Positions 3,482 through 55,956 of a stretch of DNA of 64,000 bases are shown in pieces; position 1 is the first letter of the stretch, and the number at the start of each line of letters is the position of its first letter. Under the pieces are notes generated by a model. The model saw only the letters and a list, made by a program, of their open reading frames with translations. It was not told the origin of the DNA and ran no database searches. The translations under genes were made by a program, and so were the position numbers. Source of the stretch: a phage; assembly GCA_012813795.1 (NCBI GenBank), contig GCA_012813795.1_4087.1. One strand, given 5' to 3'.

Positions 3482-4294
3482 TTAAATTACATAGGGTTTA
3501 TAGTAATGAATCTCATTTGCTATTGCAGTGAAAACTTTCTTATTAAATCTTTCACCATAATCACGAAGTGATTCACCTTCTACGCTTTCAATAAAGTAAT
3601 TATATACTGGTAGTCGTGCACTGTCAATACCTATAAACGATTTCATGTAAATTTGTACTAAACGATTCATACCTGAATTTAAACATTCAACATCAAAGTG
3701 CTTGATACCTTTGTCTAAGTGCTTGAATGCATTGATGATACCACGCTTGAAATCACGCTCCATAGTACTGAATAGATTCTCAGGAAACACTGTAATCGGA
3801 GACATGGATTTAAGAATGTATGTATCTTTTGCATTCTTGATGTACTCAATGAAGCAGTAGTTTACATTAGGCTCAATTGAACGGTCTGCATTATGATACC
3901 AGTACTTAAACTCGCTGTACTCTGCGAACTTATGCTGGCGTAAGGCATTACAATCCTCACACAGTGCAGTCATGTTCTCTTTATCATTACCACCCTGAAG
4001 ACAGTCAAGTACATTATGGTCTAACGTCATGCGTACAAGGCGTTTCCCTTTAAGTACATAAGGTCTGAATTTATAACGGTCTTTAGTACTGTGCTTATGT
4101 AAAGTGAATACTACATTGGATTCACCACAACAATCACATTTAAAGCCGTCACGAGACATTACATGAATGAGTTTGCGAGTATTAGGTCCAAACTCAGATT
4201 TAGTAATATTATCCACAATTTCTGATGGTTGGTAATATTTTGAATTCAGTCGAATCAATTCATCGATAGTACTCATTTTAGATTTCCTCTTCAC
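3482..4294 (-). CDS. HNH-family endonuclease (putative homing endonuclease)
   Basis: CxxC ... DHNVLDCLQGGNDKENMTALCEDCN resembles the HNH zinc-binding core. Confidence 0.6.
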   Translation of the reverse strand: MKRKSKMSTIDELIRLNSKYYQPSEIVDNITKSEFGPNTRKLIHVMSRDGFKCDCCGESNVVFTLHKHSTKDRYKFRPYVLKGKRLVRMTLDHNVLDCLQGGNDKENMTALCEDCNALRQHKFAEYSEFKYWYHNADRSIEPNVNYCFIEYIKNAKDTYILKSMSPITVFPENLFSTMERDFKRGIINAFKHLDKGIKHFDVECLNSGMNRLVQIYMKSFIGIDSARLPVYNYFIESVEGESLRDYGERFNKKVFTAIANEIHYYKPYVI

Positions 4295-4502: not shown

Positions 4503-4708
4503 TGAGTTTGTCCTACAATAAATTTCGCTTTAATATCACTTTTGTAACACCACATTTGTTCTTCACTAACTGTCATCCAAGAATTTTTGTTTACTTGTTC
4601 GTATGTACTATCACGTACAGAAAAACATTGGTTTAATGAATTCATAGGGGTAATTTGTACACCGGATTGCATTGAAAGAGCAACAATTAAAAAGATTGTA
4701 GTATTCAT
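4499..4708 (-). CDS. hypothetical secreted or membrane protein
   Basis: 69-aa ORF with hydrophobic N-terminus. Confidence 0.4.
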   Translation of the reverse strand: MNTTIFLIVALSMQSGVQITPMNSLNQCFSVRDSTYEQVNKNSWMTVSEEQMWCYKSDIKAKFIVGQTQ

Positions 4709-5323
4709 TGAATGTTCCTTAATAGTTAGTCATCCATCTCTTCGAGATGTCTGTTCGCTTCTAATACTACGTATTCTACGCGAATGATTAATAACTGTCA
4801 AGGACTTTTAATATTGACGGGATTTGAGGAAGGGATTTTTCTTCCCCCCGCTGGGAGGGGAATTTGACGCTGATGGTATCAGAGCTATTGCATTGAAGAT
4901 TACTCTTAATGAGTACGAAAGCGGGTCATCCTGTTTCTCTCTACTTCAGTTTCATATGACGGTCTACACTTTTAAACATAGTGTATCTTCATTAAGTATC
5001 TATGCAATCAAATACTTAATGTGAGTACTCAAATTTTGGACGCAACTTTCCTGTACAAAATTTGATAACTCTCCCTTAGATAATTCGTAAGGTGTTATCC
5101 TTATATGTCTATCTAGGAACCACCAGCCATCCTAACGTGGTTCTTTATAGTGCCGCATTGCCGTGAGGGGTTCATAATATGCCCACATCTGACGGGTTTC
5201 TTCTGCACTTCGCACTGCTGGACTGCTCAACTGCCCTCTACATTTTCGAGTGGATCAGGTTCATGTCATCCATGCCAACAGAATTGTACAATATCATTGT
5301 ATCATGAACATCCATTTTGTCCC

Positions 5324-5352
5324 ATAAAAAAAGGGCTGACCTAAGTCAACCC
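5324..5352 (-). terminator. rho-independent terminator after sigma gene
   Basis: GGGUUGAC/GUCAGCCC hairpin (one G-U pair) followed by U7 on minus-strand RNA; A/T runs on both sides. Confidence 0.55.
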
Positions 5353-5359
5353 TTTTTCT

Positions 5360-6322
5360 TTAGAAATCTTCGTATTCGTACCCTTTTTCAAGTACTATTT
5401 TTTTAAGCTTTTGAATAGCTTCACTATATTTTCGGTGCACAGATGAACGGGACTTAACAATGTTTCCTTTATCATCAACATATCCATTATCAGAAATTTC
5501 ACGAAGGGTTTCTGCTTTGTAATCCCCAAGACCATGAACACGCATGATAATTTCTCGTTCTTTAGTACTCAATTCGTCAATGATTTCTGTGATTGCATAA
5601 CGTAATGGATTACAAATGCTATCAACATTAAGGTTATAATCACGAGCAGATGAACTCAGAATATCCCCAAGGGTTCCGTCTGAATCTGAACCCAGTTGTG
5701 CATCAAGAGTCGTATATGCATTCTGGTATAACAAACAGTTCTTAACGTGCTGAAGCTCGATACCAGTACTCTCAGAGATTAATTCTGGTGTTGGTCGCTT
5801 ACCGTGTTCACGTTGATATGATTCATTAAATCGACGTACTTGGATGTTATGAACGCTCATATAACGTGGTAAGTACACCATGTAATTTGCATCTGAACTT
5901 TCATTATACATAGTCATATAAACGGACGTTGTTGCATATGTAATGAATTTGACATTCTTACTAAGATCAAAGGTTTTAAGTGCTCGCATAAAACCTTCTA
6001 CGCCATATGCAATTTTATCTTCAAACGGAATATAACATGTACACTTTGAAGCAACGTCAACAATCATACCATAGTTGTAACGAAGTAATAGGTCAGTATT
6101 CTTTTTTACATTAATCCCAGCACGAATCTCTTCTATGATAGATTCATTAGTTACACCTGCTGGACGTTTAATACTGATATTACTTTTACTACGAACTTTA
6201 TGTGGAATATCATCTTCAATAACTTCTGATGGTTCAATTGCTTCCAATGGATTGACTTCTTCATTCGCAAAACATTCATCCAGTACTTCTTCGGAAATTG
6301 CGTTTAAGTCTAGTTTCTTCAC
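5360..6322 (-). CDS. sigma-70 family RNA polymerase sigma factor
   Basis: 320 aa; region-2-like segment and C-terminal region-4 HTH (LSTKEREIIMRVHGLGDYKAETLREISD...RSSVHRKYSEAIQKL). Confidence 0.7.
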   Translation of the reverse strand: MKKLDLNAISEEVLDECFANEEVNPLEAIEPSEVIEDDIPHKVRSKSNISIKRPAGVTNESIIEEIRAGINVKKNTDLLLRYNYGMIVDVASKCTCYIPFEDKIAYGVEGFMRALKTFDLSKNVKFITYATTSVYMTMYNESSDANYMVYLPRYMSVHNIQVRRFNESYQREHGKRPTPELISESTGIELQHVKNCLLYQNAYTTLDAQLGSDSDGTLGDILSSSARDYNLNVDSICNPLRYAITEIIDELSTKEREIIMRVHGLGDYKAETLREISDNGYVDDKGNIVKSRSSVHRKYSEAIQKLKKIVLEKGYEYEDF

Positions 6323-6343
6323 TTACTTCTCCTAATGAAAAAA

Positions 6344-6841
6344 TCAAAATTGGTATACATTAATATTGTCGTCAGTATATTCATCGTGGTTTTTTACCTC
6401 TTTGAAAGTACTGAATATTTTTTGAAGTAGTGTGTCTTGGTTCTCATGCACAGCAGCATCAACCATGTACTCTCCACCACTTCCCATGAAGAATACATAT
6501 TCCTCATGCATGAACTCAAGGTACTTAAAAAACTTCCCGTTCTTTGTTCCTAAGTGAATACAATAATCTTTGGACAACAAGACACAATGGCAGTTCTCTT
6601 TTCTACTGGGCAGTACTATATCACCATATATCAAATACATCAAGACTTTATTGATTTCATTCACTGAACCTGCTGCACTAAACAGACGATCATGAATGTA
6701 TAATGATTTTTGAGTAACTACACCATATTGTTTTTTTGGTTTTAACGGGAATAATCCGAGAAAGTACCTCTCTGTAGAGGTTGTTACTCTTGAATCAGTG
6801 AGCAATAATCCAACACGCTTGTCAACATATACTGTAGTCAT
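6344..6841 (-). CDS. possible HslV/proteasome-beta-like Ntn peptidase
   Basis: 165 aa; N-terminal MTTVYV (Thr after Met) and GSGGEY motif about 120 aa in, similar in spacing to HslV TTIVSV ... GSGGPYA. Confidence 0.4.
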   Translation of the reverse strand: MTTVYVDKRVGLLLTDSRVTTSTERYFLGLFPLKPKKQYGVVTQKSLYIHDRLFSAAGSVNEINKVLMYLIYGDIVLPSRKENCHCVLLSKDYCIHLGTKNGKFFKYLEFMHEEYVFFMGSGGEYMVDAAVHENQDTLLQKIFSTFKEVKNHDEYTDDNINVYQF

Positions 6842-6842
6842 T

Positions 6843-7268
6843 CTACACCTTATCTAAGAATGCGGAATATATATCAATTTCTCTTCCTTTCAATACCTTA
6901 TCAAATGGGAAGGGATCTTTACTTCCAGTTAATATACCAAGTTTTGTGAAAAAATACAAGGCAATGAATTCAGTTATTTTGATGTTTTTCTTACTCTTAA
7001 CCAATTCTGCATAAGCAGAATTATAATCAAATTTTGTAGATGAACCATCAAATCCAAAATAGTGAATGTTGTAATTTTTTGAAAAGTTACTAACTGTCAT
7101 TCTTTCACATATCAAATCAATGGCTACTTTGGACCTACAATGCTTATTGAGTAAATCATAATTACAATTATTCAATGCCTCGTATATATCAAAAGACTCT
7201 TGAGCCAGTGTATGTACTTTAGGCTTAATTAGTTTACTTAGTAAGTACCTTATCTTTTTCAGAATCAT
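6843..7268 (-). CDS. hypothetical protein
   Basis: 141-aa ORF. Confidence 0.5.
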   Translation of the reverse strand: MILKKIRYLLSKLIKPKVHTLAQESFDIYEALNNCNYDLLNKHCRSKVAIDLICERMTVSNFSKNYNIHYFGFDGSSTKFDYNSAYAELVKSKKNIKITEFIALYFFTKLGILTGSKDPFPFDKVLKGREIDIYSAFLDKV

Positions 7269-7701
7269 AATAGTACTGCATCTCCGAAAGTAACATTACC
7301 TTATCAATATCAGGGAATGAATCAATAAGTAATGCTTTGATTTCATCCTTTAGCTCTTTGGCTTTTACAGACCATCCTTTGTAATAAGCTTGGAGGATGG
7401 GATCTTTCTTATGCATAGTATCTAATGCATTAACAGCGTAATCCACATGAAATGCAAGTACACCACATAGTTCTTCAATGTACTTCATCTTCATGTTATG
7501 AATATCGCGTTTAGCAGCGTTTGCAAGCACTGTGAACGCAGAATGCATATCACTAAGAGTATGTACTTCAAGTTTATAAAGGTCTTCACAAATGGCTACA
7601 ACGCGTTTTTCTGCCTTGGCTTGCTTAGAGTCTGCTTGGAAAAACAATTCAGACGGTGGATAGACCTTAGTTTTTTCTACCCATTGAACTAATTTATTCA
7701 C
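7234..7701 (-). CDS. hypothetical protein
   Basis: 155-aa ORF. Confidence 0.5.
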   Translation of the reverse strand: MNKLVQWVEKTKVYPPSELFFQADSKQAKAEKRVVAICEDLYKLEVHTLSDMHSAFTVLANAAKRDIHNMKMKYIEELCGVLAFHVDYAVNALDTMHKKDPILQAYYKGWSVKAKELKDEIKALLIDSFPDIDKVMLLSEMQYYYDSEKDKVLTK

Positions 7702-7973
7702 AGTACACCCTCTTCAAAAGATTCAGAAATGATCAGAGCATCATCGTAGTCGTCAGCAACAGAACGTACTACATCTAAATTAGTTTTACCTTGAACACTC
7801 TTAACATCGTTCATGAGATAATTAAGATCTACTTTAGTAACTTTTTCAGAATCGAATACACAAAAAGTAAGTTCAGTATCAGGGCAAATGTTTTTAAGAT
7901 TATTAGAAATAACTTTTTTAAAATCAAAAGACGGAGAAGCAACCAGGTTTACTGCTACTAGAATAGAGTTCAT
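7698..7973 (-). CDS. hypothetical protein
   Basis: 91-aa ORF downstream of promoter 8014..8042. Confidence 0.45.
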   Translation of the reverse strand: MNSILVAVNLVASPSFDFKKVISNNLKNICPDTELTFCVFDSEKVTKVDLNYLMNDVKSVQGKTNLDVVRSVADDYDDALIISESFEEGVL

Positions 7974-8013: not shown

Positions 8014-8042
8014 ATTGTACTCCTATATTTCAGTACTGTCAA
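8014..8042 (-). promoter_or_regulatory. sigma70-type early promoter
   Basis: TTGACAGTACTGAAATATAGGAGTACAAT on minus strand (17-bp spacer). Confidence 0.5.
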
Positions 8043-8298: not shown

Positions 8299-8352
8299 AT
8301 GTGTCCCTCCTTTGTTTTGATAAAATAATTATATCCCTTAACACATTTTATG

Positions 8353-8778
8353 TCAAGATGTTTTTGTTCCTTCCCTTGCCTCTCGTTCAAGAAACTCTTG
8401 GATTATTGAATTTTGTCGTGAACGAACAACTATTGTCATTAACAAAAGTATTGATGATGCAACACCAGGAATGATCTCACCCATTTGAATGAAATAAACT
8501 GTCAGTAATGCAAATGGTACAATAGTTACTGAACTGATCGTTTTCCACCCAAAGTCATTCGCAAAGTTGTTTTTATCTTTCTCGTCATTATCCATTGCAA
8601 TTGTTAGTAACGTAATAAGAGCAGCCAAACCCGCACACAGGCAGTATCCAACAATAGCAATAGTAAACCACGCTGGATTAAGTACTGTACCAATCGAATA
8701 CTTTGTGCATAATACGTCAATTAGACATAAAATACCAAATGAAAAGGGAGCGAGTAATAGTTTATAGTATGTTCTCAT
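8353..8778 (-). CDS. hypothetical membrane protein
   Basis: 141 aa with several hydrophobic segments. Confidence 0.5.
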   Translation of the reverse strand: MRTYYKLLLAPFSFGILCLIDVLCTKYSIGTVLNPAWFTIAIVGYCLCAGLAALITLLTIAMDNDEKDKNNFANDFGWKTISSVTIVPFALLTVYFIQMGEIIPGVASSILLLMTIVVRSRQNSIIQEFLEREAREGTKTS

Positions 8779-18696: not shown

Positions 18697-19465
<769 letters not shown>

Positions 19466-19468
19466 ACA

Positions 19469-19601
<133 letters not shown>

Positions 19602-19602
19602 A

Positions 19603-19702
<100 letters not shown>

Positions 19703-19746
19703 ATAGGCACATACGGGTCTGCTTTTAAGCTACTGATTCGGGAATC

Positions 19747-19792
<46 letters not shown>

Positions 19793-19799
19793 CGTTCTT

Positions 19800-20018
<219 letters not shown>

Positions 20019-20027
20019 TAATACCCT

Positions 20028-20429
20028 TTAGTAGTTTAAGTCAGCGGCGTTGAACACACCGAGTGAAGTCTTACCACGTAGTTTAGGGGAAATGACATAT
20101 TTTGTCAATGTCTTTTTACCGTACCAGTACTCGAAATCTTTTTCTTCTACATACGGATTAGGGAAATCCCATTTGCGTTCTTTATGAATTTGCTTGGCCT
20201 GGACTTGAAGCTTTTCAACTTCATCTGGTGGTACAGTATCTACATTATTAAACTGCATGTACATACCTTTTAACCCATCAAGAATTAATTTTTCAGTTTC
20301 TTTAACTAATGTAATCTTTTCGATTCCAGTACTGATATTCATGTAGTCATCTACATAACCATTCCAGATAACAATCTCTGGATTACCTTCGATTCCCTGA
20401 AGCATCTTGATCAAGTCATTCTTTTTCAT
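20028..20429 (-). CDS. hypothetical protein
   Basis: 133-aa ORF. Confidence 0.5.
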   Translation of the reverse strand: MKKNDLIKMLQGIEGNPEIVIWNGYVDDYMNISTGIEKITLVKETEKLILDGLKGMYMQFNNVDTVPPDEVEKLQVQAKQIHKERKWDFPNPYVEEKDFEYWYGKKTLTKYVISPKLRGKTSLGVFNAADLNY

Positions 20430-20437
20430 TTGAATTC

Positions 20438-22078
<1,641 letters not shown>

Positions 22079-22263
22079 ATCACCAACTTTAATTAAAAAA
22101 ATGGATGGTGACGCTTTTAAACGCCGCTGTTAATTCAGCTTTATAACCACCCGTTTTAACTTGCCTTTCGGCTACCTTGACGTGGGGCGTACAGGCTACT
22201 AAAAGCAACTTCTGTAAACATATTTCCACGCCTTACCATTTTCATTATATCAGTACTTTTATC

Positions 22264-23385
<1,122 letters not shown>

Positions 23386-55875: not shown

Positions 55876-55956
55876 TTTATTTCTCCATAGCTACTAATAT
55901 CTATAGATTATTTATATAAAGGAGGAAGGAAGACCCATAGGGTCTTCCATTATATA

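Follow-up and report, generated by a model that had tools for sequence, protein, structure and literature searches.

We analysed a 64,000-nucleotide stretch of phage DNA (assembly GCA_012813795.1, contig GCA_012813795.1_4087.1; hereafter the window), in which two adjoining genes encode a 165-amino-acid protein with features of proteasomal peptidases and a 320-amino-acid RNA polymerase sigma factor. Approximately 3.5 kilobases (kb) at this locus are 98.2% identical to Escherichia phage A4 (Asteriusvirus, 355 kb) and ~80% identical to 121Q, PBECO4 and more than 30 related jumbo coliphages; the window comes from an Asteriusvirus jumbo phage. In the annotations of A4 and 121Q, the 320-amino-acid gene is named an RNA polymerase sigma factor and the 165-amino-acid gene is hypothetical. 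Both open reading frames (ORFs) are real genes rather than chance ORFs, since full-length homologues exist in 52 phage records for the 165-amino-acid protein and in 77 for the sigma factor, and since the catalytic-type residues of the former are invariant among homologues down to 25% identity. A preliminary description of this DNA had the sigma gene followed immediately by the 165-amino-acid ORF; the two genes do adjoin, but both are on the minus strand, such that the peptidase gene is first along the transcript and the sigma gene second. The 21-nucleotide spacer between them contains no terminator, and the sigma gene has an AGGAG ribosome-binding site and a GTG start.

The 165-amino-acid protein belongs to a tiny family, with 13 clusters in an index of 5.8 billion proteins and 15 representatives, none of them a recognisable HslV, in an exhaustive HMMER search of 1.84e9 proteins. 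The family is confined to a subset of Rak2-like jumbo phages and on a few metagenomic contigs, and a viral_contigs scan matched 121Q and RaK2 only. As first described, threonine follows the initiator methionine (MTTVY) and GSGGEY is present at residues 120-125. Full-length members have 165-183 residues and no propeptide, and MTT stands at residue 1 in 25 of 25 sequences. Among these 25, M1, T2, T3, T20, K45, G58, G120, S121, G122 and D153 are invariant, T15, D16, H50, D51, G102 and F146 are nearly so, and position 156 holds either Thr or Ser throughout. The family has its own PHROG, with no function assigned, and 19 of the 25 members match PHROG 1040 ("peptidase HslV family") end to end, over profile positions 14-155 (~142 positions), with a best E of 8e-10; P0005, which is 67% identical to the window protein, matches it at 2.8e-6 over residues 1-130. 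Pfam Proteasome matches two of the 25 members (best E 0.021) under its gathering score, but is still the top family in its library; likewise, the TIGR archaeal proteasome beta model is the top family in its own library, below threshold. The NCBIfam HslV models TIGR03692 and PRK05456 match one of the 25 (E ~0.06), also under their thresholds.

We then predicted the structure of the 165-amino-acid protein with AlphaFold2. A 13-sequence alignment gave an unusable model (predicted local distance difference test, pLDDT, 43), whereas an alignment enlarged to 25 sequences, with 12 remote homologues taken from the exhaustive search, gave a model with a pLDDT of 94.6 and a predicted template-modelling score (pTM) of 0.85. 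Foldseek found 28 matches to this model in the PDB at E ≤ 3.4e-3, all of which are HslV, archaeal or eukaryotic proteasome beta subunits, or connectase; the best is HslV (E 9e-6). The protein is thus predicted to have the alpha-beta-beta-alpha fold of N-terminal nucleophile (Ntn) hydrolases, and each residue of the catalytic set lies, in the model, on the secondary-structure element that carries its proteasome counterpart (Table 1). Moreover, a MAFFT profile alignment with HslV and the Thermoplasma acidophilum beta subunit (both verified against the PDB) is collinear end to end, with Thr1, Asp17, Arg19, Thr21 and Gly-Ser-Gly in register. The model departs from HslV in two places: helix H1 (residues 60-72) is followed by coil at 73-83 (pLDDT ~96), such that there is no helix H2, and a long beta-hairpin of ~25 residues (18-41) lies between the equivalents of Asp17 and Lys33. 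The best sequence match in the PDB was instead the N-domain of aminopeptidase P (3il0, E 0.049, TVFITKNRRLFLTDSRYT); we rejected the corresponding creatinase/prolidase reading because that fold is absent among the structural matches listed.

From its sequence and the predicted fold, we consider the 165-amino-acid protein a genuine remote homologue of proteasome subunits and HslV, with an intact catalytic signature. A methionine that precedes threonine is removed by methionine aminopeptidase; since there is no propeptide, this enzyme would expose Thr1. Since the full proteasome catalytic set is kept, the protein is most likely an active peptidase. By the same token, a catalytically silent scaffold would not be expected to keep every catalytic residue invariant, and the other non-degradative possibility, a sequence-specific ligase or transpeptidase like connectase, fits the model poorly, although connectase is among its structural matches: the insertion in connectase consists of two helices and the first helix pair is absent, whereas the 165-amino-acid protein has a beta-hairpin and retains H1. 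We regard a non-degradative role of either kind as improbable.

The preliminary description had called the protein HslV-like, which is borne out by the fold and the active-site motifs, but the thresholds of the HslV and proteasome models are missed, H2 is absent, and the protein is nearer to another class of proteasome homologues. If it were a true surrogate of HslV, HslV-like rings would recruit or titrate the HslU of the host, resulting in an ATP-dependent protease of new specificity for the phage or in a disabled host HslVU. Consistent with such a role, HslV is the best structural match, the family resembles Escherichia coli HslV in its N-terminal MTT, its GSGG and its C-terminal Y-T-[DN], and in the GenBank records of two close relatives, fEgEco12 and Turkey3, the gene already goes by the name "ATP-dependent protease (subunit HslV)" (the paper on fEgEco12 leaves it undiscussed). 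In addition, orphan HslV genes without HslU were reported in a paper on another jumbo phage, a phiKZ-like Salmonella phage. Nevertheless, identity to HslV (ClpQ, MEROPS T1B) of E. coli and T. maritima is only 12-19%, the matches to the HslV and Proteasome models are confined to the one and two members given above, and the long hairpin between Asp17 and Lys33 is a further difference from HslV. The H2 helix that the model lacks carries in HslV the residues that relay HslU activation, for example L88 (cf. PDB 4g4e). We therefore think that an HslV surrogate is unlikely: this is not HslV proper, because the HslV model thresholds are missed and H2 is absent. Nor was an AAA+ partner, or any informative gene context, found for the novel proteasome homologues by Fuchs et al. 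(PMC8665760).

The protein is best seen as a divergent, PPH-type representative of the proteasome homologues already known from phages (PPH, Proteasome homologue of Phages and their Hosts; Fuchs, Alva and Lupas 2021; PMC8665760), because H2 is absent and because the extended beta-hairpin occupies the S3/S4 site. PPH proteins have ~140 residues and, together with RPC, are the only groups that lack H2; the S3/S4 site is also where connectase holds its specificity element (PMC8665760). With PPH and RPC, the 165-amino-acid protein has in common that it is phage-encoded and compact, has neither a propeptide nor H2, and carries the set Thr1/Asp17/Lys33/Gly47; it differs from PPH in length (165-183 residues in this family), in the extra hairpin and in having a PHROG of its own. 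PHROG 1040 is probably equivalent to PPH, since its matched span fits the size of PPH, and we used it as a proxy in place of the PPH representative WP_042125023.1. A tblastn search with P0020, a divergent member of the family, retrieved the 52 phage records noted above, with no PPH from any other phage. BFVD contains more phage proteasome-like proteins, for example those of Caulobacter phage CcrBL9 (146 amino acids), of phiKZ-like phages and of uncultured phages whose proteins are annotated as HslV.

The sigma half of the locus is on firmer ground. The preliminary description had reported signatures of regions 2 and 4, and both are detected, region 4 in part, together with a stronger region 3: Pfam Sigma70_r3 matches with E 1.1e-10 (41.9 bits, cut-off 25.3), Sigma70_r2 matches residues 81-141 with E 5.1e-5 (23.4 bits, 0.6 short of the cut-off of 24), and region 4 matches below its cut-off (E 2.3e-3) over profile positions 2-28 of 50, the first half only. 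The protein matches PHROG 351 ("RNA polymerase sigma factor") with E 8.2e-51, and SigA, RpoD and RpoS structures in the PDB match it with E values up to 3e-18 over residues 74-278 (to 310 for RpoS). The best NCBIfam models are RpoD_Cterm (7e-26) and RpoS (7e-20), both far under every equivalog cut-off, and the RpoS models align through residues 310-318. Thus, judged by its sequence, the membership of this protein in the sigma-70 family is solid. A full sigma factor is absent from T4, as had been pointed out, but has been documented as characteristic of this jumbo-phage group (PMC7824862, PMC11895373, PMC5259590), and its presence in the window is therefore no surprise; the gene is orthologous to, and syntenic with, those of the "RpoD-like" sigma factors of group 2 jumbo phages (RaK2 ORF244, CBB_513 and 121Q gp167).

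To compare the phage sigma with its bacterial relatives, we aligned the window protein, E. coli RpoS (checked against PDB 6kj6) and nine phage orthologues. Regions 1.2, 2, 3 and 4 are found in the canonical order of group 1 and 2 sigma factors (RpoD/SigA and RpoS). The phage protein is similar in size to RpoS and keeps the core-binding region 2.1/2.2 and FxTYA, the latter invariant in the orthologues (F126, T128, Y129 and A130), but is only 24% identical to it. The Trp-Trp dyad of region 2.3 is missing, as it is from group 3 sigma factors, and is replaced by TS in the window protein and by other small residues in the orthologues. Regions 2.4 and 4.2, on which the identification had been made to hinge, both appear to be present in the alignment, but their recognition residues are changed relative to RpoS, and all 10 orthologues have, on the phage side only, an insertion of ~9-11 residues (G-[FYL]-x-D-x-[KN]-G...; DNGYVDDKGNIV in the window) before the recognition helix of region 4.2. 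A conserved acidic segment of ~70 residues lies ahead of region 1.2. Since regions 2.4 and 4.2 appear to be present but diverged, a promoter specificity different from that of sigma-70 is predicted; the changed -10/-35 determinants and the region 4.2 insertion together predict a distinct promoter class, so far unmapped for 121Q- and RaK2-like phages.

A second gene in the window bears on the sigma annotation of these phages. The minus-strand ORF at 2564-2839 encodes a 92-amino-acid orthologue of A4_187, which GenBank names a "sigma-70 family RNA polymerase sigma factor"; at E ≤ 0.1 Pfam matches nothing in it, and the annotation is unsupported by this check.

The two genes end a transcription unit of small genes (Table 1). 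The stop codon of the 141-amino-acid ORF is 1 nucleotide before the ATG of the peptidase gene, which indicates translational coupling, and the terminator after the sigma gene is strong and conserved in 121Q and A4. In RaK2, Hallingskeid, EJP2 and contig L015, the gene immediately upstream of the peptidase gene is that of the 155-amino-acid protein. Its identity to the RaK2 protein (61%) is higher than that of the peptidase (50%) or of sigma (42%), and the 155-amino-acid protein might function together with the peptidase.

Table 1. Features of the peptidase-sigma transcription unit, and residues of the 165-amino-acid protein with their proteasome/HslV equivalents.
Feature	Position	Strand	Description
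Intrinsic terminator	5326..5357	minus	Directly after the sigma stop codon; AAAAAGGGTTGAC-TTAG-GTCAGCCCTTTTTTT; read from sequence
Sigma factor gene, 320 amino acids	5360..6322	minus	Sigma-70-family RNA polymerase sigma factor
Peptidase gene, 165 amino acids	6344..6841	minus	Predicted proteasome/HslV-fold N-terminal-threonine peptidase; PHROG 24804; PPH-like mini proteasome homologue
141-amino-acid protein gene	6843..7268	minus	Function unassigned; PHROG 37211
155-amino-acid protein gene	7234..7701	minus	Function unassigned; PHROG 3576; upstream of the peptidase in the same transcription unit
91-amino-acid protein gene	7698..7973	minus	Function unassigned; first gene after the 8042 promoter
Sigma-70 consensus promoter	8014..8042	minus	TTGACA-17-TACAAT (11/12); nearest strong promoter upstream of the operon
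Perfect sigma-70 consensus promoter	8328..8356	minus	TTGACA-17-TATAAT (12/12); one of many on the minus strand (early region)
Thr2	residue 2		Thr1 (after Met removal)
Asp16	residue 16		Asp/Glu17; end of strand 2
Arg18, Thr20	residues 18, 20		Arg19, Thr21
Lys45	residue 45		Lys33; start of the strand after the hairpin
Gly58	residue 58		Gly47; end of that sheet strand, before helix 1
Gly120-Ser121-Gly122	residues 120-122		Gly128-Ser129-Gly130
Asp153-x-x-Thr156	residues 153-156		Asp166-x-x-Ser169

We noted that perfect (12/12) sigma-70 promoters, TTGACA-16/17-TATAAT, are unusually numerous in the window on the minus strand, often with A-rich tracts upstream (examples at 2564, 2912, 8356, 11404, 12070, 19524, 25782, 40249, 45436 and 46644); these promoters outline an extended early region made up of small hypothetical genes. 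In phage CBB, the orthologous sigma gene CBB_513 sits in an early region driven by the host polymerase (PMC5259590). Since the promoter-rich minus strand of the window matches the early region described for CBB, we read the peptidase-sigma operon as early.

Scanning the whole window for the T4-type late promoter motif, we found a single copy of TATAAATA compared to 9.5 expected from shuffled sequences; this copy (55909-55916, minus strand) is intergenic and upstream of a minus-strand gene. The scarcity of the motif suggests counter-selection outside real late promoters.

We considered that the peptidase and the sigma factor might form a coupled module, in which the peptidase processes or destroys the phage sigma on schedule, or acts on a host sigma or anti-sigma factor. 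The arrangement invites this idea. The peptidase gene precedes the sigma gene, directly or with 1-3 small ORFs between, in the window, 121Q, RaK2, Munch, Hallingskeid and EJP2, and the same order is found on the metagenomic contigs that carry P0019, P0022 and P0023 (28-35% identity). The order persists over considerable divergence (identity to the window peptidase and sigma, 50% and 42% in RaK2; 30% and 38% in Munch), and on two contigs, L012 and L013, the peptidase and the sigma are the only genes detectably shared. The short terminator-free spacer in the window and the conserved ~70-residue segment at the sigma N-terminus are also in line with a coupled module. There is a precedent in Bacillus subtilis, where the protease gene of the spoIIGA-sigE operon precedes the gene of the pro-sigma factor that the protease activates; the likeness extends to the order of the genes in one operon and to an N-terminal extension on the sigma, but the proteases themselves are unrelated, SpoIIGA being a membrane aspartic protease and not an Ntn hydrolase.

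Other observations speak against coupling. If the N-terminal segment of sigma were a pro-sequence removed by the peptidase, it should be conserved only beside the peptidase, but it is equally conserved in CBB, Yen9-04 and XaC1; we rejected the pro-sigma idea. These three phages have the sigma gene but no peptidase, either within 5 kb of sigma in a search with the family hidden Markov model (HMM) or genome-wide by tblastn, and the ORFs of 175-185 amino acids near their sigma genes are unrelated to the peptidase. Conversely, the metagenomic contigs L010, L014 and L011 have the peptidase without a nearby sigma gene. In Munch, a terminator is annotated between the two genes. Finally, several of the upstream neighbour genes are syntenic too, such that the adjacency may simply have been inherited. 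We think a coupled module unlikely, and its specific form, in which the peptidase, made from the same early transcript, serves the phage sigma specifically (by processing, activation, timed destruction, or removal of a competing host sigma or anti-sigma factor), slightly more doubtful. If such a viral protease-sigma switch exists, its peptidase would be the first proteasome homologue to which a defined role, in transcription control, can be assigned, and the PPH-type proteins would have a function. We instead favour independent functions, because the neighbours are syntenic, each gene occurs without the other, and the sigma N-terminus is conserved regardless; the adjacency of the peptidase and sigma genes is most likely largely inherited synteny, and the two proteins most likely work at one stage, each on its own.

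Putting these results together, the reading that we prefer, with moderate confidence, is of an early operon driven by host sigma-70 that ends in an active PPH-type peptidase and a promoter-redirecting sigma factor. In this scheme, host sigma-70 would drive the operon, and its last two genes would be take-over genes. The peptidase would work without an HslU-type docking surface, presumably on a narrow range of substrates from host or phage, while the phage sigma would bind the host core RNA polymerase and, through its altered -10/-35 recognition, would redirect the polymerase from the early sigma-70 promoters to a putative later class of phage promoters. The preliminary description had suggested that the peptidase could remodel host or phage proteins at the same stage; since the peptidase and sigma share the early operon, this is plausible.

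Several results weigh against this scheme. The profile search that had been proposed for the window 165-amino-acid protein gave no Pfam match at E ≤ 1, and the other members that match remain under gathering scores. Searches of the PDB with this protein by phmmer, hmmsearch and profile methods yielded nothing significant, and hhalign against HslV alignments gave probabilities of 17-32%, confined to the GSG region (in global mode, the hhalign alignment to HslV was nonsensical, and an HslV alignment drawn from a large database added little, since its sequences are 86-99% identical to E. coli HslV). The window protein itself fails to match PHROG 1040 at E ≤ 1. In the MAFFT alignment, which is sequence-only and unconstrained, Lys45 and Asp153 are ~2 columns off Lys33 and Asp166. 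On the sigma side, a search for promoters with a consensus other than that of sigma-70 had been proposed, but inspection of the intergenic regions of the window gave no candidate motif, promoter or promoter class for the phage sigma, and TGAAACG, a divergent promoter motif reported for CBB and GAP32, is not enriched there (2 matches compared to 8 expected). Lastly, since divergent contigs still keep the peptidase ahead of sigma, the two might be functionally coupled instead of acting independently.

We consider the novelty of these findings modest. The sigma half is correct and was already known, and the peptidase class was described computationally in 2021, with no experimental study reported; what is added is a new subfamily and its recurrent sigma-adjacent context. 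No phage proteasome homologue has a reported substrate or function, and the 165-amino-acid family provides a tractable E. coli phage system, with a complete catalytic set, predicted early expression and a recurrent position next to sigma. The family could thus show what mini-proteasomes do during infection.

In the course of this analysis, we also noted other elements near the operon and elsewhere in the window. Between the terminator of the sigma gene and a TTGACA-17-TAGAAT promoter at 4801..4773 lies a non-coding stretch of ~600 nucleotides (4709-5330, minus strand), with no minus-strand ORF of at least 40 amino acids and no Rfam family at gathering score. From 4700 to 5200, identity to 121Q is 93-99% per 100-nucleotide bin, compared to 60-83% in the flanking sigma and peptidase genes; blocks of the stretch are kept in RaK2, an extended -10-like TGATACAAT is found at its 5' end, and its fold z-score is only -2.1. 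This stretch is a candidate for a conserved phage non-coding RNA or regulatory element. Beyond it, at 3482-4294 on the minus strand, is an HNH endonuclease gene (PHROG 35175, E 6e-147) that is present in 121Q (gene 170) and absent from the otherwise 98%-identical A4. Within this gene, the central part (3800-4200) reaches 89-97% identity to 121Q, far more than the genes around it, which suggests a recently exchanged mobile element. Finally, a cluster of five tRNA genes is found on the minus strand at 19131-23260: Thr-TGT, Asn-GTT, Met-CAT, Ser-TGA and a Ser tRNA with the unusual anticodon ACT (20972-21063).

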